From the IMG/VR virus record IMGVR_UViG_3300045988_108122, positions 1-42,836 of that record: DNA of 42,836 nucleotides; one strand, written 5' to 3'. Below the pieces are notes generated by a model. That model ran no database searches. It saw nothing but the letters and a program-made list of their open reading frames with translations, and was not told where the DNA came from. A program made the translations under genes and the position numbers. The DNA comes from a virus. Below are positions 2,866 to 42,757 of this stretch, in pieces (position 1 is the stretch's first letter; each line of letters opens with the position of its first letter).

Positions 2866-3327
2866 TCACCTGCTCGCTGCTATAGCTCCTACTAATACCC
2901 CTCCTGCAAATCCCCAAAAGGCCTTCTGTCTCTGCTTTAATTCACTTCTTGACTTTTCTTGTTTTATTTGAGAGCTCAACGTCTGCAAGGATTTGTTTTG
3001 CTCTGCTATTGTTTTTTTGGAGTTCGACAATGATTCCTGCGCAAGCATTAGCTCGCTCCTTATCTTCTGATAAGATAAACGCTGCTCTTCGATTAGCTTC
3101 TTCAGCTCGTTCGAGTTCATCTGCTGCAGTTCCAACGTGTTCGATAGCCCTATCAACAGATTTTCCTGTCTGTTTATTATCGTCTGCAATTCGTTGAACT
3201 GTTCCCTGGACATCATTATTGTTTCCGGAAGTTCCTCCGCAAAACAATTCAAAGAAAATGATAAGCACAGCAATAAGGGCAAAACTAATAATAAGATACT
3301 TGCTATACCTGATTTGTTTTTCTTCAT
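2866..3327 (-). CDS. Alternative-frame ORF (frame B): signal-peptide-like N-terminus, heptad coiled coil, C-terminal Gly/Ala TM. Possibly only the 60-aa product 2866-3048 is real.
   Basis: The ATG at 3327 is 4 nt from the frame-A GTG. An internal ATG at 3048 has a perfect AAGGAG-N7 RBS. The 3' tail 2866-2941, which is unique to this frame, has coding-like G-rich first positions and encodes AFWGFAGGVLVGAIAASR. Confidence 0.35.
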   Translation of the reverse strand: MKKNKSGIASILLLVLPLLLCLSFSLNCFAEELPETIMMSREQFNELQTIINRQENLLIGLSNTLELQQMNSNELKKLIEEQRLSYQKIRSELMLAQESLSNSKKTIAEQNKSLQTLSSQIKQEKSRSELKQRQKAFWGFAGGVLVGAIAASR

Positions 3328-3331
3328 TCAC
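2942..3331 (-). CDS. N-terminal TM plus coiled-coil protein (frame A; i-spanin-like topology)
   Basis: The GTG at 3331 lies 7 nt after GAAGGG. A TTG at 3349 is also possible. There is one TM (YLIISFALIAVLIIFFELF), then a helical charged domain. The first codon position is strongly G-rich, which is typical of a true reading frame. Confidence 0.6.
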   Translation of the reverse strand: MNEEKQIRYSKYLIISFALIAVLIIFFELFCGGTSGNNNDVQGTVQRIADDNKQTGKSVDRAIEHVGTAADELERAEEANRRAAFILSEDKERANACAGIIVELQKNNSRAKQILADVELSNKTRKVKK

Positions 3332-3492
3332 TTTCTGCCCTTCTTTCAAATTAAATTCTATTTCATTATCATTAAGATAGTTCTATTTTCAATATAATCA
3401 ACCTGTGCGCCGTTTTCTATACTCCCACTTAGATTTTCTAGTGTTTTAGAGATAAAACAACGCACAGGCTAATTCTGTGGCTGGGTTTTATC

Positions 3493-3573
3493 TTACAGAT
3501 TGTAATAAGTAATGCACCCTACCAGAATCGCAAGAGCAATACCAGCCCAAATCAAAATACACTGTTTTTCCAT
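3493..3573 (-). CDS. 26-aa hydrophobic peptide with a lipobox-like LVGC
   Basis: A GGAGGTGA RBS lies 5 nt before the ATG, immediately downstream of the endolysin stop. The product is MEKQCILIWAGIALAILVGCITYYNL. Confidence 0.4.
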   Translation of the reverse strand: MEKQCILIWAGIALAILVGCITYYNL

Positions 3574-3597
3574 ATTAGTCACCTCCTTATACAATCT

Positions 3598-4143
3598 TTA
3601 CCAATTATGATGCCACCAGATAGCCTTACCGCGAATAACATCACCGCCTGGTTTCAGTTCTCCGTCGCCTGGCACATCTGGCAATTTCCACAAGTCCCAG
3701 CGTTCAAAAGTAGTTGCCGGGCCATAGTCGTCTAAGTCTGCTGCTTCTGCATGTGTCATTACGATATCGGCATTAATGTCCAATTCAAGTTCCTCACACA
3801 GTACAGCTACAACTTTCGCCATACTATCTATCTGTAACTCTGTCGGTGGCACGTTGCCAAAGTCGATATGCCCATCAGCATAGGCTACAGCATCTACACA
3901 GCACGCTAAAGCAATACCAATAGCTCTAGAATTGCGCCGCCATGTATGAGCCTTATATTCAGTTAAATCATCGGTTGTCGCCATAACAGCGCCGTCGCTG
4001 TCAATGTTTAGGTGATAGTCACTAAAAAACTGGTGATAATTACCAGCTGACCAATGTAGATAGATCTTATCAATATTACCTCTAGCCCTTGCTGCTAACT
4101 GCCGTAGCTCATCTAAAGTGATTCTTTTTGTTACTGCCCCCAT
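3598..4143 (-). CDS. Endolysin, N-acetylmuramoyl-L-alanine amidase (Amidase_2/PGRP-like), single domain
   Basis: The ATG at 4143 has an AGGAGG RBS. The motifs IYLHWSAG, HTWRRNSRAIGIAL and VMTHAEAADLD resemble T7-lysozyme-type amidases. No cell-wall-binding domain is evident. Confidence 0.8.
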   Translation of the reverse strand: MGAVTKRITLDELRQLAARARGNIDKIYLHWSAGNYHQFFSDYHLNIDSDGAVMATTDDLTEYKAHTWRRNSRAIGIALACCVDAVAYADGHIDFGNVPPTELQIDSMAKVVAVLCEELELDINADIVMTHAEAADLDDYGPATTFERWDLWKLPDVPGDGELKPGGDVIRGKAIWWHHNW

Positions 4144-4456
4144 TATTCTCTGCCTCCTGTTCAAATTTATCAGGGACACCGTCCCCGTTTTTATCTACTA
4201 AACTCGTAGCTATGAAAGTGACAAATGCAACCATAGCCGGTCCTATAACCTCTCTTATCAGTGCTAGAAGATCAGACATAACAATCTTATCCAACCACAA
4301 CCACATATACATCCACGCAGCGTAATAGGTCAGTACCAGCAAAACGACTGCAATAAAATAGCCTACAATGACAGCCATTATTTTTGGCGACATTGAGGCT
4401 ACTTTGTTTCTGGCACTCACTATTAAGTTTTTTATTTTCTCAAACATAAATATCAC
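4109..4456 (-). CDS. Holin-like membrane protein (2 TM, charged C-terminus)
   Basis: The call rests on hydrophobic segments, a charged tail and its position directly upstream of, and overlapping, the endolysin. The start is ambiguous: GTG at 4456 or ATG at 4447. Confidence 0.65.
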   Translation of the reverse strand: MIFMFEKIKNLIVSARNKVASMSPKIMAVIVGYFIAVVLLVLTYYAAWMYMWLWLDKIVMSDLLALIREVIGPAMVAFVTFIATSLVDKNGDGVPDKFEQEAENNGGSNKKNHFR

Positions 4457-7972: not shown

Positions 7973-8011
7973 ACTATTTTAACTCTTGTTAAATGGCATT
8001 TTGTCGGAAAC
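7973..8011 (-). promoter_or_regulatory. Conserved late-leader box, copy 2 (GTTTCCGACA-N16-GAGTTAAAATAGT)
   Basis: It has the same two conserved blocks and spacing as copies 1 and 3, and lies 91 bp from copy 1. Confidence 0.55.
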
Positions 8012-8141
8012 TTTTTAAAATTTTTTCTTAATCTAAAGTAAGGTTAAATAACTAAACTAAATTGACAAACTATTATAATTTTAGTAGTATAATAATAGAT
8101 AAAAACAACAACAGTTATATAATAGTATAGAGGTGGTATAT

Positions 8142-8279
8142 ATGTGGACTGGAACATGTGGATTGTTAGAAGGTAAAAAAAATGTACTTTTACCTGAGTT
8201 TAACTCATTCCAAAATACAAATAATAATAAAACCGAAGATACTAATTGCAAAAACAATGATAATAAAGAAAAAAAATAA
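8142..8279 (+). CDS. Small hydrophilic peptide (45 aa), uncertain
   Basis: An AGAGGTGG RBS lies 5 nt before the ATG. The ORF ends 1 nt before a bidirectional terminator. The composition is low-complexity and N/K-rich, so it could be non-coding. Confidence 0.3.
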   Translation: MWTGTCGLLEGKKNVLLPEFNSFQNTNNNKTEDTNCKNNDNKEKK

Positions 8280-8307
8280 AGAGCGGAAATCCGCTCTTTA
8301 TTTTTTT
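8278..8307. terminator. Bidirectional intrinsic terminator between convergent genes
   Basis: The stem AAAGAGCGG / CCGCTCTTT has an A-run on one side and T7 on the other. Confidence 0.75.
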
Positions 8308-9169
8308 AACAATTATTATCTCTTCTATACTTTTTCTCTTGATTATACCACTTATTATAAAGTTTTATAATTTCTGTATAATATTTTCTTGCAGGATCAT
8401 CATTTCTAATAGCTATAAAAAAATACAGATTTTTTACATATTCTAAAAATGTTTGATGTAATGAAGGGTATACATAGTCGCTTTCAGCAAGATTATTATT
8501 AAAATACATACACAAATATTCCAATTTATTTAAAACTTTATCCATCATAGAAACAGTTTTAAAGTAAAGATCATTAATCCATAATTCATTTATAGATTCT
8601 ACTGTAAGATCGTTTGATTTATTTTTAAACTCATAAAACTTTAAATACAAATCAATTTCAGATAAATTATATCCTATTGTAAGAACTTCTATATAAATTT
8701 CAGGTTGTACTTTTTTCCGAAAAATATTAATAAGACATTCTCTTCTTTCTTCGCCAAATAAACCATCCATCTCTTTTTTATCAAATCTTATTATTTTTTC
8801 GTTATTTAAAAATAGAATTTCATCAATGAATCCTATTTTTTGTAAATATGAATTAAAAGCATGTAATTCCATAAGGATATCAGTAGCATATAATTTAGCC
8901 ATTTCAAAAGCATTTTCTTGAGCAAGTTGTTTATTTCTTGTTTCATTTTCTAACTTTATATAATAAACCTGCACTGCAACGAAAATAAGCGAAATACCTG
9001 TTGCTATAGCTCCTAATGATGAAAAGAAATTAGTATTTTCTGTTAGAATTTTATGAGCAACAGGAAAATAATATAAACCTACAACAGCCGATATAACTAA
9101 TGCACTAATTATAGATATTTTATTTTTAGACAGCAAACAAAATATTTTATTTTTAAATTCTGCAATCAT
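8306..9169 (-). CDS. Two-pass membrane protein with a large cytoplasmic domain (287 aa), unknown function; accessory (moron) gene
   Basis: It has two N-terminal TM segments and very AT-rich codon usage unlike the flanking virion genes. It is insulated by terminators on both sides. Confidence 0.7.
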   Translation of the reverse strand: MIAEFKNKIFCLLSKNKISIISALVISAVVGLYYFPVAHKILTENTNFFSSLGAIATGISLIFVAVQVYYIKLENETRNKQLAQENAFEMAKLYATDILMELHAFNSYLQKIGFIDEILFLNNEKIIRFDKKEMDGLFGEERRECLINIFRKKVQPEIYIEVLTIGYNLSEIDLYLKFYEFKNKSNDLTVESINELWINDLYFKTVSMMDKVLNKLEYLCMYFNNNLAESDYVYPSLHQTFLEYVKNLYFFIAIRNDDPARKYYTEIIKLYNKWYNQEKKYRRDNNC

Positions 9170-9514: not shown

Positions 9515-9545
9515 AACCCCCTCGAATTTGAGGGGGTTGTTTTTA
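9515..9545 (+). terminator. Intrinsic terminator
   Basis: The stem AACCCCCTC (9515-9523) with GAGGGGGTT (9530-9538) is followed by GTTTTTA. Confidence 0.7.
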
Positions 9546-12500
9546 TTCATCACGTTCTTTTTTGGGTCTACGTCGGAACAAATCCTCGGTTCTCGGTGTC
9601 ATGTCACCGTATAAAATATCCCAAGCATTAAAGAACCATTTGCTAAGTTGGCTCGGCAACCCTTTATAGAGAAGAGCTAAATTAACAACCGGCTCAACAA
9701 GCTCTTCGTTTTCTTTTTCACCTCTAACCACTTCACCAATAGTCGAAGTAGAAGTAAATACTGTATTCAACGAAGACTCTATCGGAGAGATGCGATATGG
9801 GAAAGTCTGCATATCAAACATTCTCCTTACTCCAAAATTTACTCCCTGCCCTATTGGCCCTCCTAATGTAAACGGATAAGAAAACAGTTCTGACAGGAAA
9901 TCATTGTAATCGTCATCATCATCATCAACAAATGGATTTTCTCCAGCAAGAAGAAGTGAAAACAACGTAAATGTAACCCATTTTCCAAAGACAAAACTAG
10001 TTATTTCTTTCGCCATCTTTTTATATGCCTTGTCCGAAAAGTTTATTTCCTGACGTTTAAATGTAGCATACCATTGGTTGAATTGTGTGTTGAAAAAAGT
10101 TTGAAACATGAAAAATATTTTTGTAGCTCCTTTAGTTCTTACCATAGAAGAAACATCTGTCGCTCTTGTAGAACCCATTGTTTTTCTAATAATGCTATCC
10201 GCATAGTCTATGGCTTCCTGTTGAGTTTTTCCTCTATTCATCTGTCGTGTATATGCGCCGTACCATATTGGCATTGCTGTCAAACCATCTGTAAATGCCA
10301 TTGACATATTAGACCATTCCAATACTTTTTTTGTCATGCCATCCAATTTATTGTTTTCCATCAGCTCCCTTGTTGTAAAATCAGTGCCTTTGAATCTTTC
10401 AGCCATCATTGGCGACAGTTCCTGTACAGTATTCCACATTTCTCTTGCTGCTCGTGGCGAGTTGCAGCCTAACATAATTCCATTAGTAATAAAGTCCTGT
10501 AACGCCTCTATATGGCCATATCCTTCAACAGTGTTACCATAAAGCGCTATATTAGCAAGATTCTGGGTATTTATCTTAAGGCTCATACCAATCATATAAG
10601 GAATAACCTTACCACGCAGTTTATCTGCTACATCTCCTATAAATGTTTCAGCTGCCGAAGTATTATACATACCTTCAGGCCTAGCAGTCACATCTATTTG
10701 CTCTTTTAGTGCTTTAAAAGTTGCTGTGCCAAGCTTAGCTCTCATAAGACCTGTTATATCTTTATCATTAAATATACGGTTAGCACCCTGAATAACTTTT
10801 CTAAAATGCAAGTCATGGATGGACGCATTAATCTCTCTTATCCCTGCATCCAATGTAAGATCAACAGGGTATTTTGCTCCTACTGTTCTTGCTTTCATGC
10901 TTCCGGTATTAGTATGCATACCATATTTTAACTGAGGTTCATTTGTTTCAGTAAACGGCGTATTGCCTGCTGGAGTACTTCCTCCCCTTATATCTCTAAC
11001 GAGCGGGAAATATCCTCCTCTAAATATCACAATATTACCGTCTGCAAGAATAAGTTCCCTAGGTGTCGCTTCCTGTTTTTTAGGAGTAAAGCCTTTAGTC
11101 TGTCGTTCATTCTCCGCTTTTTCCGACCATTTATATTCTGCGATATTTATTAACTCTTGTGCCATAACTACATCCTGGCTTGTTAAGTTATTGCTAAGAA
11201 ATCTAAGAATGTTTTCTGCAGTAGTTTTCCTTGCAACTTCATCAGATACAGTCTCAGACGCCCTTACCCATAATGGCGAATTTTCAAGCCCAATCGGTGG
11301 AGTATCACACAATCTCCTAAAACTCTCCTGAGTTCCTGAATACACAAGCATTTTGACAAGATTTGTTCTGTCAATCTTTAATGGTTCACCATCTATATCT
11401 GTGCCTAATTCTGAATAACTTACCTTTGCATAGACATCACCAACAGCTTCTTTCCAACGTTTAGACGCAATTTCAAACTTATTTGCTAAATAAGCCAAGT
11501 CAACGCTTTCAAGGTCAAGCTTATGCTTTAGCGGAAGATAAAGCATATTGTAAAAGAATCCTTGCTTCCCTTTGTCGAGAATTTCATATATGCTGTCGGA
11601 TGTTAACCCTTGAGCTATTCCTTTTTTAATCAGGTTTACTTTTGCGTTTTCTCCTGGAACAAGCTTTTCAGTTGTTTTCAGTTTTTGAAGGTGCAATAAC
11701 GTTTCTTCCTTGAATTCATTAAAATCCTTTTTAGTTTCTAATAGGCCTACGCCTTTTTCCTGTTTTGCCAGAGCCCGGATATTTTTTATAGCGTCAACCA
11801 CATCAAAGTATTGATTGCGCGTTAATGCAGTAGGATTAGAAATGTCAACAGTTTCATCGAATAGCCACTCAGCAATATCAGCGTTTCCTAAAAACTTATT
11901 CATAGCATTAACGTATTGTTCAAGCGTCATTTTTTTATTAGCCGGATCGTATCCTTTTAACTTTATACCCATTCTTGCAAACAATGCTCCTGCTTGAGAC
12001 AGATGGTCATCATTAACCCAAGTTTCTTTTTTTGCGTTCTTAGCCCTTTTTAAAGCTCTTCCCGCCTTATCTACAGCAAGTCTAGTTTTCATACTTTCCA
12101 TAACCAGAGCATGGTTTAATGCCTGTAAACGTTTCTGAGTTAAGGCTGTTTCCATATCTCCATCTCTTACAGCAACAGCAGCTTTAGCTGCGGCGTTACG
12201 CTCTGCAACAATAAATTTTTGCACTCTTACTGAATCTTTTATTGACATATTATCAATCATTTCAACTGCAGCATTAATAGCTTGTTGCCTACGTGCTTTA
12301 GCTAGTTTCATTTTAGTTTCTGTGCTACGCTGTTTGGCGAGAATGCCAGCCGCAGCATCTTCAATGATTTGCTGTTCAACCCCTAGAACCAATCCACTTT
12401 CATCACTATAGAAAGCTTCCTTAGTCGCAAGTTCAGCTACCTGTCTTTCAAGCACTATGTCAGGGTACTTCTCATTAACAACTTTATCAACAGCATTTTT

Positions 12501-15500
12501 TATAGCCTGTGCTTCCGTAGGATTTACAAGAACAGATTTTGCAAAGTCTTCTCCACTAGCATATTCATTTTGCTCTGCCACTGCAGAAAACAATAACATA
12601 TATTCCTGTTCTTTATCGGTCAGTACTTCTTCGGAGTTCTTTGCTCTACCAATTAGCTCTTGATATTTTCGCGCAGCTGTAGCAGCACTTTTTTCTCCTA
12701 ATGTTTCGATCATTTGTCTTTCCGCTAAATAAAGTTTTTGACCTTGAACATTTTCTTTAATCGAAGGAGTAACTTTATCTCTGTATGCCTTTATTTCCGC
12801 ACTACGTTCTTTAGTGAAATTTTTAAGGCTCTCTTTCGTCAAGCTTTCAACAGCTTTATCATAGGCATTTTCTATTGTTTTAGCAAGTTGTATTTTAGAC
12901 TTCTCGGAAAGGGCATCTATAATAGTAGCAGGAAGCTTGGCAAAATATCCGTCTAGCTTTTGTTGCTCTATGATAGCCTCCTCACTTGCAAGCGCTCTGT
13001 CAAATACTGCTCTTACCTCCGGAGTAATCTCCTTTGCATATTCTTTATTAGCATCAACAAAATCTTTGATCGATTTATAAATACCAAGTAGCCACTTTTT
13101 CCAGTTTGCAAATATCCGTCGCAAGTCTTTACTTGGTGCAATACCCAACATAAAATACTGTTCCGCCCCAGTTGCCCAACGTTCATAAATTGCTGTTTTG
13201 CGGTCAAACTGCTCTTTGGTAAGATCACCATCATATTTATCAAGTTCAGCCCATTCTTCTTCACTGCTTTCTGCATATTCAAGGAGTGTCTGCCTATCTT
13301 TACGCATCTGTTCTGTTGCGGTAGGAAGCTTACTGCGCCTCATAATATTCACTGACAAATAGTGTCCCAACGCCTCGTGAATAACAGTACTAGCATTGGC
13401 CCCTTCAAACAGGCTGATAATTGCTTTACCTTCTTCGTCCCAGGTGATAGCACCTTTAGTTTTCCCTTCGGCCTGGTAGTATCCCTGCATTTCTTCTCGT
13501 CTCTTGCGGAGTGCATTTTCATCTGGTATACTATTATTAAGAAGACTGCCAAGGTTGTTGCCTTTGCTAGCGGAATCGCTGCTAGGAGATTGTAACAACT
13601 TGTCAGTCTTAACAAAACCGCTATCTGTTGAAAACGGCATGAGCCATTCGGGCTTCTCGTTTTCAATCAGTTTAGCGGTTTTTTCTTTATTGATGTATCT
13701 TAATTTTCCGTTTTCAATTTGCTTAGCAAACCATTCATAGCGTGGTTCGCCTGTCTTATTGTCAGTCTTACCATATGCGCTTATAATTTCGTTCATAACA
13801 TATTTATTGCTTTTATTATCTACTTCAAGCTCAAAAGGCACTACAATGGTTGCTCCATTTTTAGATTTTAAATCTAGAGCAACTATTTTTCTTTTTGCAC
13901 CATTCTTACCATCATAGGTATCAAATATCATTAAGGGATCAGTTAATGCCCTAGGTATCTGCTTCACTATATCAGCAGACATATCACTTTTATGTTTTCC
14001 ATTTAAAACTTTATCAAGATTTTCAACAGACATATCTACCGGCAATATTTTAGCACCAGCAACTTCTAACGCAAGAGGTGTCTGCATTACTCTAATAGTT
14101 TTATCTACCAATTTTCCTGATATAAACTTATCAATATTAGCAGCGAAGTTATTTTCATCCTCAAGCAATTTTTCGTTAGCGCTTTTAGTTTGCATATATC
14201 GGCCCTTAGGCGTACTGACAAAACGCTTGAAGCTTACAGGGTTATCCCTAAAATACTGCATAGGGTCATCAGGATATTGAGTTCTTGCGGCACTTTCCAA
14301 CAACACCATCGCTTGTAATGCTTCTTGTTTTGTTGCCCCAATCTGTCGAAGTTCGTTTACCTTTTCGGTTTTCCAATTTTCAAATTCATCTAAATTATAT
14401 TTTGCTTTCTGATATTCCTTAGCTATCTCTTTTTGCAGACGCTCATTATTCACTGAATAACCATCATCTTCAAATGTTATACCATCTTTGACAGCATTCA
14501 TAAAATCTGCATTCTTTGCTACCATTGCTTCAAAGTTTCCTACTAAAATATCTATGGTCTGTCCCGACTTTGCTGCTTGGACAATATCTTCTTGTTCTAA
14601 TCCAAGCGTTTCTGCGACATTATTAATATTTTGTGTCTGAGCATACTGATACAAAGTCTCGCCGTCCACCTGAACAAATTCGCCTTGCAAATTGGCATTT
14701 ACTACAGACGCTGCATAAGCAGGCTCCGCTCCGCTTTTTTTGATTCGCTCTGCACCTTCTTCAAGCATATTAAGCCGCTCTTTATGTATTTCTTTATCAA
14801 CGTGTTTATTGATATTGTCAGTTAGAACTTTCACCCCGCCAAAACCAGCACCAAACACACCACCAATTAAACCAGAATAAATAGCATCTTTAGACATTTC
14901 AGGGAAAGCTTTAATTATTTTATCAGTAAGTTCTCCAATGCTGGCATTTGGATTCTTCGCTATAATATCGCTTACTCCTTCGGGGAACTCCTGCAACGCT
15001 TCTGTAAACCCTTCCTCTACGCCGCGTTTAATTATCTCGGTAAATTTTTGAATGTACCCTTTTCCGCCAGGAACTTTATCAAGGACTTTTTCCATACCTG
15101 TTTTTTCTAATATGACTTGGCCTATAACATTTGTAATTAAAGGCAATTTCATATCTTCAAATTTTACGCCTTCTGCATTTAACCGTTCATACTGACTACC
15201 AGCTATTTGTGATCCCATAAAGGTTGTAGCTACAACAGGTGCACCAGCTAACGCAAGACCAAATTGAGCAATAGTTGATGGTGCAGCTTCCGCCACATCA
15301 AGTCCAAACTGCCCAAGCGCAGTATCACCTTTAACAGGCGTTCTTTGTAACAAAGGAGATTTTGCAACTTCTTCTAAAGACACAACTTTCTCTCTACCAG
15401 TACTGCCAAGTACATTTCCTGCAGTATATAACGCTCTGAATGCTAACGGCATATTAATTCCTAAGGTTTGTTCGTCTTGTGCTGCACTCTCATTAAATTT

Positions 15501-15746
15501 CCCTAGTGCAATTCCATAATTAGCAATATTTCGCGCTGCCCCTTTAATACCATTCCATAATGAGGTAGCCGTTTTCCATTCCTCGGAATACTTTGTATCG
15601 TCTTGCAAAAAAGCATAGTTATAGTCATCTTTTGTACGGACATACTCACCAACATCATTGCGTTGATAAATATTGAGATTTACTCTATTTTTTATTTCTG
15701 ATGTGACCCTATTTAACTCTTCTTCATTAAATGGCATCTTATTCAC
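9543..15746 (-). CDS. Giant virion-associated (ejection/polyvalent-like) protein, 2067 aa, with HExxH metallopeptidase motif
   Basis: It is a single uninterrupted ORF in the tail/ejection gene block. HEALGH occupies aa 790-795 (nt 13362-13379). It has Gly-rich hydrophobic segments near the N-terminus and hydrophobic segments plus a D6 run near the C-terminus. Confidence 0.85.
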   Translation of the reverse strand: MNKMPFNEEELNRVTSEIKNRVNLNIYQRNDVGEYVRTKDDYNYAFLQDDTKYSEEWKTATSLWNGIKGAARNIANYGIALGKFNESAAQDEQTLGINMPLAFRALYTAGNVLGSTGREKVVSLEEVAKSPLLQRTPVKGDTALGQFGLDVAEAAPSTIAQFGLALAGAPVVATTFMGSQIAGSQYERLNAEGVKFEDMKLPLITNVIGQVILEKTGMEKVLDKVPGGKGYIQKFTEIIKRGVEEGFTEALQEFPEGVSDIIAKNPNASIGELTDKIIKAFPEMSKDAIYSGLIGGVFGAGFGGVKVLTDNINKHVDKEIHKERLNMLEEGAERIKKSGAEPAYAASVVNANLQGEFVQVDGETLYQYAQTQNINNVAETLGLEQEDIVQAAKSGQTIDILVGNFEAMVAKNADFMNAVKDGITFEDDGYSVNNERLQKEIAKEYQKAKYNLDEFENWKTEKVNELRQIGATKQEALQAMVLLESAARTQYPDDPMQYFRDNPVSFKRFVSTPKGRYMQTKSANEKLLEDENNFAANIDKFISGKLVDKTIRVMQTPLALEVAGAKILPVDMSVENLDKVLNGKHKSDMSADIVKQIPRALTDPLMIFDTYDGKNGAKRKIVALDLKSKNGATIVVPFELEVDNKSNKYVMNEIISAYGKTDNKTGEPRYEWFAKQIENGKLRYINKEKTAKLIENEKPEWLMPFSTDSGFVKTDKLLQSPSSDSASKGNNLGSLLNNSIPDENALRKRREEMQGYYQAEGKTKGAITWDEEGKAIISLFEGANASTVIHEALGHYLSVNIMRRSKLPTATEQMRKDRQTLLEYAESSEEEWAELDKYDGDLTKEQFDRKTAIYERWATGAEQYFMLGIAPSKDLRRIFANWKKWLLGIYKSIKDFVDANKEYAKEITPEVRAVFDRALASEEAIIEQQKLDGYFAKLPATIIDALSEKSKIQLAKTIENAYDKAVESLTKESLKNFTKERSAEIKAYRDKVTPSIKENVQGQKLYLAERQMIETLGEKSAATAARKYQELIGRAKNSEEVLTDKEQEYMLLFSAVAEQNEYASGEDFAKSVLVNPTEAQAIKNAVDKVVNEKYPDIVLERQVAELATKEAFYSDESGLVLGVEQQIIEDAAAGILAKQRSTETKMKLAKARRQQAINAAVEMIDNMSIKDSVRVQKFIVAERNAAAKAAVAVRDGDMETALTQKRLQALNHALVMESMKTRLAVDKAGRALKRAKNAKKETWVNDDHLSQAGALFARMGIKLKGYDPANKKMTLEQYVNAMNKFLGNADIAEWLFDETVDISNPTALTRNQYFDVVDAIKNIRALAKQEKGVGLLETKKDFNEFKEETLLHLQKLKTTEKLVPGENAKVNLIKKGIAQGLTSDSIYEILDKGKQGFFYNMLYLPLKHKLDLESVDLAYLANKFEIASKRWKEAVGDVYAKVSYSELGTDIDGEPLKIDRTNLVKMLVYSGTQESFRRLCDTPPIGLENSPLWVRASETVSDEVARKTTAENILRFLSNNLTSQDVVMAQELINIAEYKWSEKAENERQTKGFTPKKQEATPRELILADGNIVIFRGGYFPLVRDIRGGSTPAGNTPFTETNEPQLKYGMHTNTGSMKARTVGAKYPVDLTLDAGIREINASIHDLHFRKVIQGANRIFNDKDITGLMRAKLGTATFKALKEQIDVTARPEGMYNTSAAETFIGDVADKLRGKVIPYMIGMSLKINTQNLANIALYGNTVEGYGHIEALQDFITNGIMLGCNSPRAAREMWNTVQELSPMMAERFKGTDFTTRELMENNKLDGMTKKVLEWSNMSMAFTDGLTAMPIWYGAYTRQMNRGKTQQEAIDYADSIIRKTMGSTRATDVSSMVRTKGATKIFFMFQTFFNTQFNQWYATFKRQEINFSDKAYKKMAKEITSFVFGKWVTFTLFSLLLAGENPFVDDDDDDYNDFLSELFSYPFTLGGPIGQGVNFGVRRMFDMQTFPYRISPIESSLNTVFTSTSTIGEVVRGEKENEELVEPVVNLALLYKGLPSQLSKWFFNAWDILYGDMTPRTEDLFRRRPKKERDE

Positions 15747-17801: not shown

Positions 17802-17832
17802 GAAAAAGCGCTTTAACAAATTGTTAAGCGCT
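17802..17832 (-). terminator. Intrinsic terminator (minus strand) abutting the RBS of 15739-17778
   Basis: The stem pairs AGCGCTTTAACA (17807-17818) with TGTTAAGCGCT (17822-17832), with one bulge. A U-run follows on the minus-strand RNA. The hairpin overlaps the -35 of the plus-strand toxin promoter. Confidence 0.6.
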
Positions 17833-17849
17833 TAAAGGTGTGTTATAAT
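17821..17849 (+). promoter_or_regulatory. Strong sigma-A-type promoter for the small toxin gene
   Basis: The elements are TTGTTA (17821-17826), a 17-nt spacer, and TATAAT (17844-17849) with an extended -10 TGT. Confidence 0.7.
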
Positions 17850-17904
17850 GTTGTCCGAGATAGTTTGATAGTCGGATTCTCTCCCTGTAAAGGGAGGTGA
17901 TAGC

Positions 17905-17982
17905 ATGACTGTATACGAAGCATTATCTTTGATGGTAACCTTTGGTACACTCGTTGCTATCATTTTGTCTAAAAGTAAATAA
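17905..17982 (+). CDS. 25-aa hydrophobic peptide resembling the 'putative holin-like toxin' type I toxin family of Firmicutes
   Basis: The product is MTVYEALSLMVTFGTLVAIILSKSK. Its AGGGAGG RBS is paired in a CTCCCT-GTAA-AGGGAG hairpin (17881-17896). It is oriented opposite to the surrounding virion operon. Confidence 0.7.
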   Translation: MTVYEALSLMVTFGTLVAIILSKSK

Positions 17983-17997
17983 TTTTACTTATATAAG

Positions 17998-18124
17998 ACA
18001 AAAGACCCACTAACGGTGTAGTCGGCCTTTTCTTCAAGTTTTAACTTATTCAGGAGAGAGCTGACACGCCAATATCAAGCTATCTCTTTTTGTTTATTAT
18101 ATAATACATTTCGTACTAATGCAA
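17998..18124 (-). ncRNA. Candidate antitoxin small RNA with its own promoter, convergent with the toxin gene
   Basis: On the minus strand, TTGCAT (18119-18124), a 17-nt spacer and TATAAT (18096-18101) predict a start near 18088. The hairpin at 18001-18030 followed by a U-run predicts an RNA of about 90 nt that overlaps the 3' region of the toxin transcript. Confidence 0.5.
18001..18036. terminator. Shared (bidirectional) terminator hairpin of the toxin mRNA and the convergent small RNA
   Basis: The arms are AAAGACC (18001-18007) and GGCCTTT (18024-18030). The mismatch is A.C on the plus strand and a G.U wobble on the minus strand. T-rich tracts lie on both sides. Confidence 0.5.
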
Positions 18125-18156: not shown

Positions 18157-18804
18157 TTAAATCCAGTTATAACCTGTGCTTGTACCATAAGTAGTTTTCC
18201 ATTTACTAGAATCATAACCGCCTAAAGATATATTACCACTATTACCCCATCCATACCCGTCACTTCCTTTTCCATACGAGGAAGCACCTTGCTTTCCTGC
18301 GCTCTTAGGACTGTATAAACTACCTGCAAGGGATAACCCACTCATAAGCATATTATTCATAAGTGCACGCTTACCGGCTTTACGGTAATTGCGTGCATTT
18401 TGATTATAGATATCACGTTGATTAACAAGGTCGGTAGACTGCTGAAAAATATTCTCAACGCCTTGCCTTGAATTATAGCGTTCAATAGCAAGCTCTGTTT
18501 CCATATTATACGCACTGTCAACTAAAGCGTTTGCCGCACTGCCTGAAGCTGTTATACCGGAAGCACCTATATTAGCCCTCTGCTGGCTTAACATAGCGTT
18601 CATACGCCGGCGTTTATTTTCTTCATTGATAGTATTTGACTTAGACTGTTCTTCAGCCTGCTCCTGCAGTTTATCTGCGTTCTGATTCGCTATCTGAGCA
18701 TTTACCTCTGCCTGTTGAGCGGCAGCGTTATATTGCTGCTGCTGCGCTCTGCCCGAAATAAAGCCACCCAAAAGAGTGGCGCCTATTGTTGCCGCTACGC
18801 CCAT
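18157..18804 (-). CDS. Internal virion/ejection protein candidate (215 aa)
   Basis: It has a Gly-rich hydrophobic N-terminus, a Q/N-rich helical region and a Gly/Ser/Tyr-rich C-terminus. It lies in the tail/ejection block. Confidence 0.6.
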   Translation of the reverse strand: MGVAATIGATLLGGFISGRAQQQQYNAAAQQAEVNAQIANQNADKLQEQAEEQSKSNTINEENKRRRMNAMLSQQRANIGASGITASGSAANALVDSAYNMETELAIERYNSRQGVENIFQQSTDLVNQRDIYNQNARNYRKAGKRALMNNMLMSGLSLAGSLYSPKSAGKQGASSYGKGSDGYGWGNSGNISLGGYDSSKWKTTYGTSTGYNWI

Positions 18805-19282: not shown

Positions 19283-22105
19283 TTACCCTTCTATTTCCGG
19301 AATCAAAGATAATACAGTCATCGGCAGCGGATCAGGCTGTTTAATTGTTATCTGCTGAGTTTCATCATAAGTAGCAGACTTGATCGTTACTTTAAATTTA
19401 CCTGTTTGCAAACTAATCGGTTCCCCATAGGCTTCATTACTGCGCCATTTAAATTCATCTAATTCATTCTCCTTCATTCCAAACAATCCACCACGGCTAT
19501 CTTTAAGTAATAATGTAACTGCAGCAATTCGTTTCTTCCGACTTAAATATGTGCCATCTTGAGCTGTAAAATCTATAGGCAGTGTTTTTATTTCCGCATC
19601 TATAGGCAGCCCTACATGAACCTTCTTATATTTATTTCCAAGAAGAACCTTGCCGTTTTCTACAGTTCGCTTAGGAAGTACATTTCCATCTGCCAATATA
19701 GCCACAGTATACCCTTCTAAATGCTCAAGACCTGATATTTCATCGGTCGGCTCTCCTTCATAGGTTATCCCACTATCGACGAAAAACTGATCCTCTACAT
19801 TAGTACTTTTATCACGGCTTTCCATTATTTCCACATAATACTGCCCGCCACGCTCAATTACTGCATATAACTTATCTTCTGTTGACCCTCCGATATTACA
19901 TACACTAACAAACTTCCCGCCTGCCGTGGTATGCTGGTGCCATGCGTAGATATCCTGTTCCTTTATGTAGGTAAGCCCTAACAGCAAACCATCATCACGC
20001 ACACACCAAACAATACTGTTAGGTATCTGCTGATAGGTCATAGATATTATTTTATGCCCTTCAAACAAGTGCGAAGCCAATAAATTTAAATCATCACCGG
20101 TATATTTATCAACATCATAGCTGTAAGCAAGGTCACGTATGATATTGCCCTGGTGCTGCACATAAATAATCCTGCTGCCGATAGTGACAGGATTAACATC
20201 TGACACACCCCTATATTCCTGCGGTTGACTTAAAACATTGCTTCCTGTAATGGCTTTGCCGCCGCCGCTTACTTTAAATTCTCCACCGGCTGTTAACAGC
20301 AGCATTTCACCAAAAGCTATAATTGCCTTAATGCCATTCATTTGTCCACCGTTTAAAGTGGCCGTAATTCCATCATCATCGGCAGACGGTATGCTTGTTC
20401 CAAAGTTATAATAGTCTCCTGTTTTGCTTGTCCAGAATGTCTGCGGAAATCCTTTACTTCCCGCAAATACTAACCGGTCTTCATAAAAGCCTGTTGCAGA
20501 AGGATACCCTTTTTCATTATTCCAAGCAGCAAAAGCAAAATCGCGGGTTTCATCTGTAGAAGCCAACTGTTTTTTTACAGTCCCTTTCACTACTGTAGGG
20601 CTAACATATTCAGTGATCAATACATGCCCCGTATAATCTCCCCCTATGCTTTGAATGGTTATATAGCCTCTCTGCTTCTCGTTTTCACCGCTCCAAACAC
20701 CTGTATTAAATTCAGTAGAAGTAACTCTGTAACTGGCAATACTTTCAGACGTGTTCTCCTCAGTCAAGCTATAATTCTGGCTTCTGTTCCCGCTCTGTGT
20801 TCTCACATTTACCCATTGCAAAGAAACAGGATCATATTTTTCCAAACTAAAATTACCATCCCAAAAACCAAAACTTTCTACATAGACATTGGATTTCGGT
20901 AATACACTAACCTGCAAATTTCCGCCTGTACTGCTTGGTATCCCCTTTTTATAATCTGTTTCTAAAAAGTGAGTTAGGGAAAAAAGACTCCCTTCATCAC
21001 TTTTAGCAAAAATATCATCAGAAGCCGTCAAGGTTATATTTCCATCTGTGCTCGATGCATTAACTGTCGTATTATCGCCAAGCGATAATCCATAAGATAT
21101 TTTTACCCATCCATTATCTCCAGCTGAACCATTATTGTTTCTTGATGCACCAACTCCCCCTAGTCCACCATTCCCATAAGATGTTGCAGCAGTTCCATTT
21201 CTTTGATGTCCGTAACCTTCACTATCTAAATAATAATAAGCACATCCACCACCGGTACCACCTCTTGCCAAAACATTTTCTACACTAGAAGCTTCTCCGT
21301 CTCCACCAAAGACACTAGAAACGTCTTTTGAATTATCGGTGTTTTTCCCTACTAATCCACCCGATCCGCCTCGACCAACCTTAATTTTTAGCGAACTAAC
21401 GCCACTTACCTTCATTGTAGTAACAACAAGTTCTCCCCTACCACCATTAGCTCCTGTCTCGGAAGCGGATATGCCACCGCCACCACCTCCGCCACCACCT
21501 GCTCCTGCAATTTCTAGACTTATATTTTTAGCGTCAGATGGTATATCTGCTACATACGATCCAGGGACCGTCCACGATTGTGTTTTTATACTTACACTTG
21601 CTTCACTATACTTTGAAGCATCAAACGGTCCGCCTGTAATATCCATTGCCTCAAAGCGCCAATCTAAACTTCCATATCTTGTAAGTGTCATTGGTGCATG
21701 TGCAGGATGAACAATGAAAAGCACGTCAGCACTCTGTGTATATTTTATTTTTGCAGCATCTTCTAAATCTTTATCAGTAAAAAAGTTTTCTATGCTATAT
21801 GGTGTGCCATCTTCTTTTACAACAATACCACCATTTGTATAAAACTGGCATCTGCCAGCAGTAATTTCAACAATATAATTTTGATCTGTGCTGTACATAA
21901 ATGGTATTAGCACAGCCTTTTTATTATTATAAGTCTGCGCGATGAACTTAAAGCCTGGTCTATTAGCAGCGCCACCATAACGCAGAACGAAAAAATTTCT
22001 TAAAACAGCAGCTCCGCTGTCATATTTAGCAATATCAGTACGTCCATACATAGACGGCGACAATTCACCGCCGGCAAAACTTGATTTTAATTGATAGAGT
22101 GCCAT
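19283..22105 (-). CDS. Tail tubular protein B / nozzle-like protein (940 aa) with an inserted glycine-rich domain
   Basis: The N-terminus (FAGGELSPSMYGRTDIAKYDSGAAVLRNFFVLRYGGAANRPG) is typical of podovirus nozzle proteins. The insert WTVPGSYVADIPSDAKNISLEIAGAGGGGGGGGG mirrors 5357-6226. Confidence 0.7.
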   Translation of the reverse strand: MALYQLKSSFAGGELSPSMYGRTDIAKYDSGAAVLRNFFVLRYGGAANRPGFKFIAQTYNNKKAVLIPFMYSTDQNYIVEITAGRCQFYTNGGIVVKEDGTPYSIENFFTDKDLEDAAKIKYTQSADVLFIVHPAHAPMTLTRYGSLDWRFEAMDITGGPFDASKYSEASVSIKTQSWTVPGSYVADIPSDAKNISLEIAGAGGGGGGGGGISASETGANGGRGELVVTTMKVSGVSSLKIKVGRGGSGGLVGKNTDNSKDVSSVFGGDGEASSVENVLARGGTGGGCAYYYLDSEGYGHQRNGTAATSYGNGGLGGVGASRNNNGSAGDNGWVKISYGLSLGDNTTVNASSTDGNITLTASDDIFAKSDEGSLFSLTHFLETDYKKGIPSSTGGNLQVSVLPKSNVYVESFGFWDGNFSLEKYDPVSLQWVNVRTQSGNRSQNYSLTEENTSESIASYRVTSTEFNTGVWSGENEKQRGYITIQSIGGDYTGHVLITEYVSPTVVKGTVKKQLASTDETRDFAFAAWNNEKGYPSATGFYEDRLVFAGSKGFPQTFWTSKTGDYYNFGTSIPSADDDGITATLNGGQMNGIKAIIAFGEMLLLTAGGEFKVSGGGKAITGSNVLSQPQEYRGVSDVNPVTIGSRIIYVQHQGNIIRDLAYSYDVDKYTGDDLNLLASHLFEGHKIISMTYQQIPNSIVWCVRDDGLLLGLTYIKEQDIYAWHQHTTAGGKFVSVCNIGGSTEDKLYAVIERGGQYYVEIMESRDKSTNVEDQFFVDSGITYEGEPTDEISGLEHLEGYTVAILADGNVLPKRTVENGKVLLGNKYKKVHVGLPIDAEIKTLPIDFTAQDGTYLSRKKRIAAVTLLLKDSRGGLFGMKENELDEFKWRSNEAYGEPISLQTGKFKVTIKSATYDETQQITIKQPDPLPMTVLSLIPEIEG

Positions 22106-29214: not shown

Positions 29215-29303
29215 TGGCGGAAGGTACAAGACTTGAACTTGTAAGCCGATTGCTCGACTGACGCCTTAGCAGGGCGCTGCGTTACCGATTACGCCAACCT
29301 TCC
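29215..29303 (-). tRNA. tRNA-Ser (anticodon GCU), CCA encoded
   Basis: I folded the cloverleaf by hand. The acceptor GGAAGGT pairs with ACCTTCC, and the anticodon loop is CTGCTAA. It has a long variable arm, a T-arm ACAAG-TTCAAGT-CTTGT and discriminator G. Confidence 0.9.
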
Positions 29304-29306
29304 GTA

Positions 29307-29398
29307 TGGCGGAGCAGGTAGGATTCGAACCCACACAGCGTATCCCTACGCCCTATCAGTTTTCAAGACTGCTCTCTTAGCCGTTTGAGTACTGCTCC
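29307..29398 (-). tRNA. tRNA-Ser (anticodon UGA), CCA encoded
   Basis: The acceptor GGAGCAG pairs with CTGCTCC, and the anticodon loop is CTTGAAA. The long variable arm has a GCGTA/TACGC stem, the T-arm is GTGGG-TTCGAAT-CCTAC, and the discriminator is G. Confidence 0.85.
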
Positions 29399-41638: not shown

Positions 41639-42757
41639 ATGTACGGCGACGGAACAATATGGTATGACAAAGCACGAAAAAAATATTGTTACGATTACTA
41701 CGACAACGACGGCAAACGTCACCGTAAACGCTTTGCCACCGAAAAAGAAGCCAAAGAATTTAAGAAAGAAATACGGGCAGAACGTGATAAAGGAAATCTT
41801 ACATCCTCTTCTATTACCATTGGAGAATGGGTAATAGAATTTTTAGAAACATATCAAAAACCACACCTGCGCAGCAACAGTTTTGCAAGGCAAAAACAAA
41901 GTGCTAATAAGCTTGCTCCTATTGCGCATATACCAATCGACCAACTCAGCGGCAAAGAAATACAAAAGCTGTATAATAGCTATGACGGTGTTTTAAGTAC
42001 CTCTTCAATAAGTAAGATACATAAGTTACTTTTCGCCGCTTACAAGAAAGCTGTGGCTCTGAGAATGGTACAATATAATCCAATGCAAGCTGTTGAGCCG
42101 GTAAAAATCAAATATAAAGAAATGTCAGTATTTTCTTTTAGTGAACTAATTCGCATCTTCCGTGTACTACGGACCAATAAATACTATAAAAAATACTACA
42201 CATTATTTTATTTGCTCCTGGTACTTGGCTGCAGGATAGGCGAACTTCTTGCAATAAAATGGGAAGATATTGATTTTGATAAAAGAGAAATTTGTATACA
42301 ACGCGCAAAAGACAGTGGTACTGGTCAAGTATTCCATGATCCTAAAACAAAAGCCGGTATACGTTATATTCCGATCGTCTATGATGCATGCATAGAAAGA
42401 CTAAAAGCTATGCAGACAAGCGGTAAAATCACTTATATAAACGGCTTCGTATTTTGTACCGAAAGCGGCAAAGCCCTTAACTATGGAAATATCCGACGTG
42501 CTTGGGTAAAGATATGTGAGTTGGCCGGAGTAAATAAAAATATCCATACATTCAGGCATACATTTGCTACAGCAGCACTCACTAAAGATATACCCATCTT
42601 AGAAGTATCAAGGTGTCTTGGACACGCTGACGCAAACACAACACTTAAAATGTACGGACATGCAATGCCAGGATTTAACAGACATATAATAGACCTTTTT
42701 CAGAAGAAAAAAACAAAGAGTGCGACCAAAACTGCGACCACAAATCAACAAAGCTAG
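41639..42757 (+). CDS. int: Tyrosine recombinase / phage integrase
   Basis: The catalytic-region motifs GCRIGELLAIKWEDID, HTFRHTFATAAL and LGHADANTTLKMYGH are present. It is adjacent to attR. Confidence 0.9.
   Translation: MYGDGTIWYDKARKKYCYDYYDNDGKRHRKRFATEKEAKEFKKEIRAERDKGNLTSSSITIGEWVIEFLETYQKPHLRSNSFARQKQSANKLAPIAHIPIDQLSGKEIQKLYNSYDGVLSTSSISKIHKLLFAAYKKAVALRMVQYNPMQAVEPVKIKYKEMSVFSFSELIRIFRVLRTNKYYKKYYTLFYLLLVLGCRIGELLAIKWEDIDFDKREICIQRAKDSGTGQVFHDPKTKAGIRYIPIVYDACIERLKAMQTSGKITYINGFVFCTESGKALNYGNIRRAWVKICELAGVNKNIHTFRHTFATAALTKDIPILEVSRCLGHADANTTLKMYGHAMPGFNRHIIDLFQKKKTKSATKTATTNQQS
42719..42741. repeat. 23-bp repeat, second copy (P-arm side), inside the integrase 3' coding end
   Basis: It is identical to 161-183. 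Confidence 0.6.

Follow-up and report, generated by a model that had tools for sequence, protein, structure and literature searches.

The window analysed here is the whole 42,836-nucleotide (nt) viral record IMGVR_UViG_3300045988_108122 of the IMG/VR database, and its subject is a small plus-strand module lying in a 378-bp gap between two minus-strand virion genes. The minus strand of the window carries a T7/epsilon15-type virion module (large terminase, portal, a capsid protein of Pfam GP7, and tail tube A and B), which continues with gp13-like and gp14-like internal virion proteins, the gap, a protein of 679 amino acids (aa), and one of 2067 aa. The closest annotated phages are epsilon15-like and BPP-1-like temperate podophages (∼36% identity in tail tube B), and the phage itself is an epsilon15-like temperate podovirus. 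Epsilon15 has the identical gene order with a gp14-gp15 spacing of only 12 nt, so the 378-bp gap is an insertion. The module region had no match among GenBank phages by megablast or blastn; a prophage of Phascolarctobacterium faecium DSM 14760, a member of the Negativicutes, has the same module, as allele A, at 99.4% identity (contig NZ_QLTS01000009), and the host is probably Phascolarctobacterium. We read the module, with a probability of about 0.8, as a self-contained TxpA/BsrG-type type I toxin-antitoxin (TA) cassette, a moron lying antisense between the gp14-like gene and the gene at the gp15 position. Its elements are the following.

17803-17833, minus strand: left inverted repeat, a hairpin (17806-17833) followed by a U-run; terminator-like, between the module and the gp15-position gene
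17821-17849, plus strand: toxin promoter (TTGTTA at 17821-17826, TATAAT at 17844-17849, 17-nt spacer with TG at 17841-17842)
17856-18095, plus strand: predicted toxin mRNA of ∼240 nt, its ends placed from the promoter and the U-run
17857-17870, plus strand: 5' strand of a P1-like helix, pairing with 18073-18086 and covarying with it
17878-17900 (core 17881-17896), plus strand: Shine-Dalgarno (SD) hairpin CUCCCU-GUAA-AGGGAG, with a GUAA loop and the SD sequence AGGGAGG buried
17905-17982, plus strand: toxin open reading frame (ORF), 25 aa, MTVYEALSLMVTFGTLVAIILSKSK; Pfam Hol_Tox match, length conserved, proportion of synonymous differences (pS) above that of nonsynonymous differences (pN)
17993-18089, minus strand: predicted antitoxin RNA of ∼97 nt, complementary to the toxin 3' untranslated region (UTR), including the P1 3' strand
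18000-18031, minus strand: putative antitoxin terminator hairpin with a U-rich tail; strand-biased fold
18073-18095, plus strand: 3' strand of the P1-like helix (18073-18086) and U-run TTTTTGTTT, forming the predicted toxin mRNA end
18096-18124, minus strand: antitoxin promoter (TTGCAT at 18124-18119, 17-nt spacer, TATAAT at 18101-18096)

A search with the gp14-like protein yielded 59 IMG/VR contigs, which with the P. faecium locus made 60 loci and 36 distinct sequences (lineage 1). A second podophage lineage (lineage 2) contributed 45 resolvable junctions, giving 105 loci in total. Scanning IMG/VR with a degenerate pattern placed the cassette, besides the gp14|gp15 junction (context 1), in further places (context 2), which lie either downstream of a giant gp16-like gene or beside homologues of the window genes at 194-2518. 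The alleles compared, with the variable part of the P1-like helix where it is given, are as follows.

Allele A: the window's peptide; UUUGAUA with UAUCAA(G or A)
Allele A': peptide ending in SNRK
Allele B: MSIYQALSLMIAFGILVATIILAVK (or R-ending); UUUAAC with GUUAAA
Allele B': MSVYQALSLMIAFGVLVATIILAVK; UUUGACGG with CCGUCAAG
Allele C: TTG start, MSTYEALSLMIAFSTLIAIVILGCK; UCAGUG with CACUGA

The toxin gene and its predicted mRNA

The window peptide matched the Pfam family PF16935 Hol_Tox at 32.2 bits (cutoff, 23.3; E value, 9.5e-8), and the remaining alleles all scored above the cutoff (32-42 bits). BsrG and TxpA also passed it, with 34.5 and 31.3 bits, respectively. Since the alignment spans only positions 1-18 of the 34-position profile, the window peptide is a short member of the family. 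It is of the small single-helix type, with a hydrophobic core from L7 to L21 and KSK at the C terminus, where the other alleles have K, R, or KK. The only NCBIfam match, to ComI, was rejected (20.9 bits against a cutoff of 55). Between alleles, pS is 0.5-0.87, with synonymous sites near saturation, and pN is ∼0.3, which shows that the ORF is coding and under purifying selection. An earlier reading of the stretch, made from its letters only (the sequence-only reading), had proposed a 25-aa ORF of the 'holin-like toxin' type at this place and a comparison with toxin hidden Markov models; the ORF at 17905-17982 and its Hol_Tox score bear this out. By its profile match, the peptide is a member of the TxpA/BsrG family, with toxicity itself predicted. 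BsrG and TxpA form one family (PMC6562991), members of which some annotations name 'holin-like toxins' (PMC2887945). The window holds no second copy of the module.

The toxin promoter agrees with the consensus at 10/12 positions, has an extended -10 element, and was the top site of a 2-kb scan. It is present as the sequence-only reading had described it, apart from the notation 'N17-TGTTATAAT', which is slightly off, as the TG lies inside the 17-nt spacer. The TTGTTA hexamer, the TG, the TGnTATAAT motif, and the 17-nt spacing are the same in both contexts, and the spacer sequences differ.

Folding of the predicted toxin mRNA (17856-18100) gave a minimum free energy (MFE) of -88.6 kcal/mol and a z-score of -8.6 against shuffled sequences. 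The 6-bp hairpin with a GUAA tetraloop that the earlier reading had seen around the ribosome-binding site AGGGAGG was confirmed at 17881-17896; with its extension it reaches -11.9 kcal/mol, and in the folding model the probability of being unpaired is 0.02 for the stretch from the SD to the AUG. Allele C forms the hairpin with CUUCCC/GGGGGG, including one compensatory pair, and allele B pairs its SD with downstream codons rather than in a hairpin stem.

The two ends of the mRNA are joined by the P1-like closing helix of 14 bp (17857-17870 with 18073-18086), the 3' strand of which directly abuts the U-run at 18087-18095. Its first 7 bp (GAGAUAG/CUAUCUC) are invariant, and the remainder covaries in four versions. 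In the covariation count, 96.9% of cells were paired, compared to 37-48% with a slid partner, and 6/14 pairs were changed on both sides, a number reached by 0-1/500 shuffles. The helix is part of the MFE fold of every allele. Folding revealed no separate terminator stem-loop after P1, only a weak alternative local hairpin (18052-18088; -10.0 kcal/mol, z-score -1.3). From these features, the toxin mRNA most likely runs past the central hairpin (18000-18031) to ∼18095 and closes on itself through the covarying 5'-3' helix.

The segment 17870-17984 matched positions 28-150 of the 259-position Rfam BsrG model (RF01412) at 34.6 bits (E value, 2.6e-6), below the gathering threshold of 55, and allele B' matched it at 28.4 bits. 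The scores form a graded series, from the Brevibacillus phages Emery (121 bits) and Osiris (112 bits) through contig L078 (51.5 bits) to the module alleles (28-35 bits), and the likeness is for this reason not accidental.

A separate family member of 28 aa with a TTG start (MSVYEALSLMIAFATLVLLIIDEKRPKK) is encoded in L078 (2513-2808) and L112, where a 10-codon upstream ORF ends 4 nt ahead of its start. Its RNA in L078 scored 128.7 bits against Rfam rli28, a Listeria small RNA ('sRNA'), which, together with its BsrG score, suggests that rli28 is actually a toxin mRNA of the TxpA/BsrG family. A further contig, L114, has a 27-aa member of the toxin family and, at 13610-13681, a match to the Rfam RT-6 RNA that stays under the threshold (35.2 versus 46.7 bits).

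The predicted antitoxin and the flanking terminators

Convergent with the toxin gene, the minus-strand promoter TTGCAT-N17-TATAAT of the sequence-only reading is present at 18096-18124. It is invariant in context 1; in context 2, its place is taken by TTGCAA-N17-TATAAT, and the two spacers are unrelated (TCCGTAAAAAAGTGGTA versus TAGTACGAAATGTATTA). Hexamers and 17-nt spacing that persist while the spacer changes are what functional promoters would be expected to show. Three contigs (L023, L041, and L050) have a tandem unit of ∼21 nt (ACAGTCCGTATTAATGCAAG) that duplicates the antisense -35 region.

The central hairpin next to the toxin stop codon folds at -15.2 kcal/mol (z-score -3.1) as minus-strand RNA and at -8.6 kcal/mol (z-score -0.6) as plus-strand RNA. 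The earlier remark that it pairs better in the minus-strand RNA thus holds, and the bias, together with the U-rich tail, is found in 5/5 alleles. The predicted antitoxin starts inside the P1 3' strand and ends at this one-way terminator. An RNA of about 90 nt over the toxin 3' region had been expected; the predicted length of ∼97 nt agrees with this, but because the toxin mRNA reaches ∼18095, the overlap of ∼95 nt lies in its 3' UTR and not in the coding region. By sequence prediction, then, there is a cis-encoded antisense gene, with an opposite-strand promoter and terminator, that overlaps the toxin transcript. No conserved antisense ORF that could encode a protein antitoxin was found on the minus strand of the module among the alleles compared. 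The first 17 nt of the predicted antitoxin are almost the same as the toxin mRNA 5' end, with which it must therefore compete for the P1 3' strand. When the antitoxin target was blocked in the thermodynamic folding model, the unpaired probability of the P1 5' strand rose from 0.006 to 0.25-0.6.

A second minus-strand terminator-like element with a putative insulator role, absent from the sequence-only reading, is the left hairpin at 17806-17833 (-12.0 kcal/mol, z-score -5.2). The inverted repeat overlaps the toxin -35 element, and no other exact copy of it occurs in the window. In context 2, compensatory changes turn it into a perfect 11-bp stem followed by U6 (-14.5 to -16.0 kcal/mol). With the plus-strand end at 18087-18095, it closes the module on both sides. 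All three module hairpins were judged by folding, because a consensus terminator scan missed them owing to bulges or A-U-rich stems.

That terminators would stand in the path of late transcription had been foreseen correctly, as the module holds two minus-strand terminator-like hairpins. Elsewhere in the window, the minus strand has two tRNA-Ser genes (29215-29303 and 29307-29398) and, after them, a strong hairpin with a T-run (∼29130-29095) that directly precedes the small terminase gene; the upstream proteins of 147 and 92 aa had no PHROG match. By analogy, this layout resembles lambda tR' and suggests that the late genes are under antitermination. Given this hairpin and the annotated terminator inside the epsilon15 late operon, it is plausible that late transcription passes the module by read-through or antitermination.

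Relatives, alleles, and exchange

The module lies in the same gap in 60/60 lineage 1 loci, and the 25-codon ORF is intact in 36/36 distinct lineage 1 sequences and at 45/45 lineage 2 junctions. An empty gp14|gp15 site was not found in close relatives among the 105 loci; only the distant epsilon15 is uninterrupted. The sequence-only reading had pointed to related prophages, at the same or different positions, as a place to look for the module, and it occurs at 105/105 junctions and at the second site of context 2.

Within lineage 1, backbones are 95-99% identical and cassettes differ by 25-30%, with breakpoints between backbone and variable cassette at ∼18124 and ∼17325. Composite cassettes, for example those in which a B toxin precedes what is left of the 3' part of a C or A cassette, indicate recombination through the conserved cassette ends. 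Contig L051, with a gap of 597 nt, is also composite: its A' module is complete, and behind it come part of a B 3' region and then a C-type remnant, in which the antisense promoter is present for a second time. Next to the module, the gp14-like protein ends in one of two unrelated C-terminal stretches of ∼40 residues (18157-18278 in the window; L021-L059 among relatives), in phages that are otherwise 95-99% identical.

The lineage 2 podophages are distant from the window phage: identity is 31% for gp12 and 36% over 63 aa for gp13, gp14 and gp15 had no significant match, and the flanks show no nucleotide similarity. The C-allele cassettes of the two lineages are 98.5% identical over 325 nt, a block that extends from the gp15-side SD to the antisense -35 element, and the same allele series is present at 45/45 resolvable lineage 2 junctions. 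Judged from these comparisons, the cassette is fixed at one spot and is swapped, in the form of interchangeable alleles, between distantly related phages.

The A' module is duplicated on three contigs (loci L071 and L079, L075 and L120, and L136 and L070): besides the copy in the gp14|gp15 gap, each has another shortly downstream of the giant gp16-like gene, and the promoter spacers of the two differ. Beside a context 2 module, L074 (oriented; 3106-4302) encodes on the plus strand a DnaJ-like protein of 398 aa (MKDYYAILEVHPKASQE...) with its own promoter as cargo, and L126 has a different cargo at that site.

Several other features of the window were recorded. The integrase gene lies at 41639-42757. 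The gp16-position protein (9543-15746) is unusually large, with 2067 aa in the window and 1527 to 2321 aa among relatives, and contains a MuF_C domain at aa 584-690. Between its gene and the tail-fibre genes, a low-GC island (8001-9169; GC 0.235 versus ∼0.40 elsewhere) contains a minus-strand ORF of 287 aa (8306-9169; phrog_9659, function unknown), probably another cargo gene or moron. In tail tube B (gene at 19283-22105), aa 179-341 form an inserted glycine-rich domain (Pfam Gly_rich_2), and the DNA of this part (21094-21592) differs among relatives.

Proposed role, rival readings, and known systems

The sequence-only reading had seen a type I TA module antisense inside the virion operon, and every computational test run supports it. 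In the mechanism that we propose, the strong sigma-70-type promoter would yield a toxin mRNA of ∼240 nt that is translationally locked, with the SD and start codon buried and the 5' end paired just before the terminal U-run; the P1-like pairing should protect both mRNA ends and make the mRNA long-lived. The convergent promoter would produce the antisense RNA of ∼97 nt, running from the P1 3' strand to the terminator right after the toxin stop codon. A duplex of ∼95 bp would then open P1 and mark the toxin mRNA for decay by RNase III and exonucleases, as in txpA/RatA and bsrG/SR4. The terminators on both sides would insulate the module, so that in the lysogen its promoters would drive neither the silent late genes nor antisense RNA to them. 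Its most likely role, by analogy with the type I modules of phiCD630-1, is prophage maintenance by post-segregational killing.

Several points weigh against this interpretation. The minus-strand -35 element is weak, agreeing with the consensus at 3/6 positions, for which reason a consensus promoter scan missed the antitoxin promoter. The Rfam BsrG match, which is under threshold, covers only the 5' UTR and the ORF, and the P1 covariation rests on four or five independent alleles. Many of the contigs come from one IMG dataset, so that the counts do not represent independent samples. Presence at 105/105 junctions is unusual for an accessory addiction module and may mean that its role is tied more closely to the phage. 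PHROGs recognised no antiterminator or late regulator in the phage. In the folding model, the target blocking that opens P1 leaves the SD and AUG equally buried (unpaired probability of 0.02 in alleles A and C and 0.2 in B), and an SR4-like tightening of the SD helix was not reproduced. The modelling therefore does not support a translational arm like that of SR4: the lock would be intrinsic. As SD occlusion is unchanged on target blocking, the model favours decay-only control, in which the antitoxin would, like RatA, do no more than promote degradation of the mRNA.

Because of the allele turnover, a serious alternative is that the same architecture was selected as a means of phage defence or of phage-phage competition, through abortive infection or superinfection exclusion, which we regard as possible and advance tentatively. 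Infection would stop host transcription, the labile antitoxin would decay, and the toxin would kill the cell; each divergent allele would stand for an orthogonal specificity, beyond cross-neutralisation by related phages. At least four very different alleles on backbones 95-99% identical, breakpoints reported exactly at the cassette edges, one allele series common to two lineages, and two module copies in some phages all fit this picture, as defence cargo typically shows rapid allele turnover at a fixed hotspot. The diversity could, however, also come from selection for orthogonal addiction modules, and the experimental precedent for prophage-borne type I TA systems is maintenance (PMC7699646). 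We think it very unlikely that the peptide is instead a lytic-cycle factor for lysis timing, or of holin type, that an antisense RNA merely tunes. The family is named 'holin-like', BsrG and TxpA lyse cells on plates when the antitoxin is absent (PMC6562991), and the module is fixed in 105/105 loci like a core phage function; but a separate lysis cassette of the phage, with an endolysin gene at 3598-4179 and adjacent small membrane proteins, lies on the late strand at a distance of 13 kb, which makes the peptide unlikely to be the canonical phage holin. The peptide gene, moreover, has a housekeeping-type promoter and is antisense to the late operon, so late transcription would make antisense RNA to it. 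Epsilon15-type phages do without the peptide, and one further, unrelated site likewise harbours the cassette.

It is likewise improbable that the module serves chiefly as a device that controls transcription of the late operon, with the small ORF secondary; its terminators and promoter would then hold the gp15- and gp16-position proteins at their low dose, or gp14 and gp15 would be damped by antisense transcription. Such a device would explain why two minus-strand terminator-like hairpins stand directly upstream of the gp15 ribosome-binding site, why the position is fixed in two lineages, and why the homology block takes in the gp15-side SD, and the internal late-operon terminator of epsilon15 would be a parallel. 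It leaves aside an ORF of a known toxin family under purifying selection; the covarying P1 and the buried SD belong to the plus-strand mRNA and not to late transcripts, and the cassette forms a working unit at another site, too.

Beyond a passenger addiction module, and rather doubtfully, the cassette could be a 'compatibility locus', fixed in position but allelic, in the epsilon15-like phages of Phascolarctobacterium. The left terminator and toxin promoter at one end and the P1 3' strand and antitoxin promoter at the other would then serve as recombination handles, through which orthogonal toxin/antitoxin alleles would be swapped between phage lineages. Which related phages share a lysogen, displace one another from it, or superinfect it would depend on the alleles, and placement antisense in an antiterminated late operon would make the toxin lysogeny specific and silenced by late transcription.

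The kind of system, its mechanism, and its prophage location are already established biology. The added interest lies in the host clade, the fixed spot between ejectosome genes, the natural P1 covariation series, and the exchange of alleles across lineages. The TxpA/BsrG type I TA cassette proposed here would extend this family to phages of the Negativicutes (diderm Firmicutes), for which our literature search found no report of type I systems. Four or five alleles provide compensatory-change support for P1, which was earlier established by structure probing of a single RNA. Predicted to be RNA regulated and insulated on both sides, and recently exchanged between distant gut phages at the same junction, the 330-bp cassette is a candidate for an orthogonal RNA switch and makes it practicable to study how temperate phages tolerate foreign promoters and terminators inside the late operon.

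Among known systems, the closest structural match appears to be bsrG/SR4 of the Bacillus subtilis prophage SPbeta rather than txpA/RatA, on account of the Rfam match, P1, and the SD in a stem. Structure probing of bsrG mRNA showed that P1 pairs nt 1-35 with nt 232-262 and that the SD lies in the SL1 stem; SR4 binds the 3' part of the mRNA, leaving the P1 5' strand single-stranded (PMC3834814). The module shares with bsrG/SR4 a prophage-borne Hol_Tox toxin, an mRNA closed by P1 with the SD in the stem of the first hairpin and the start codon paired with downstream codons, and a convergent antisense RNA (predicted here) that can pair with the 3' part, the P1 3' strand included. It differs in the lengths of the toxin (25 aa versus 38 for BsrG) and of the predicted antitoxin (∼97 nt versus 183 nt for SR4), in the U-run that abuts the P1 3' strand with no separate terminator hairpin after P1, in the SD helix that the folding model does not extend on antitoxin binding, in the Rfam score below threshold, and in the diderm Negativicute host and the location within a virion gene cluster.

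The comparison with txpA/RatA of the B. subtilis skin element made in the sequence-only reading stands with regard to the toxin family, the 3'-end overlap, and the decay-type antitoxin that the model favours, RatA being thought to act solely via RNase III-dependent decay (PMC6562991); in structure, the module appears closer to bsrG/SR4. TxpA has 59 aa and RatA ∼220 nt. The closest annotated peptides in a tblastn search of phages, with 56-64% identity, are those of the bsrG-like loci of the Brevibacillus phages Emery and Osiris, which, with Listeria rli28, resemble the module in being phage-borne. The RNAs of the two Brevibacillus phages are full-length Rfam BsrG members above threshold (112-121 bits). 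Their loci, encoding peptides of 27 aa, differ from the module in lying near lysogeny or regulatory genes and not between internal-virion genes.

The type I TA modules of phiCD630-1 of Clostridioides difficile, which were shown experimentally to stabilise the prophage (PMC7699646), likewise combine a prophage-encoded small hydrophobic toxin with an antisense RNA antitoxin (predicted here), but their toxins are from unrelated families (34-47 aa) and their RNA layout differs. In hok/sok, long-range 5'-3' pairing also keeps the full-length toxin mRNA inert, a resemblance of function only, as Hok is of an unrelated toxin family and Sok is directed against the 5' leader instead of the 3' end. Like other phage morons, the module is an independent transcription unit, with its own predicted promoters and terminators and presumed expression in the prophage, where related phages leave hardly any space between the genes (12 nt in epsilon15); unlike them, it is predicted to be RNA regulated and bidirectional, is present in 105/105 loci, and varies by exchange of alleles instead of by presence or absence.

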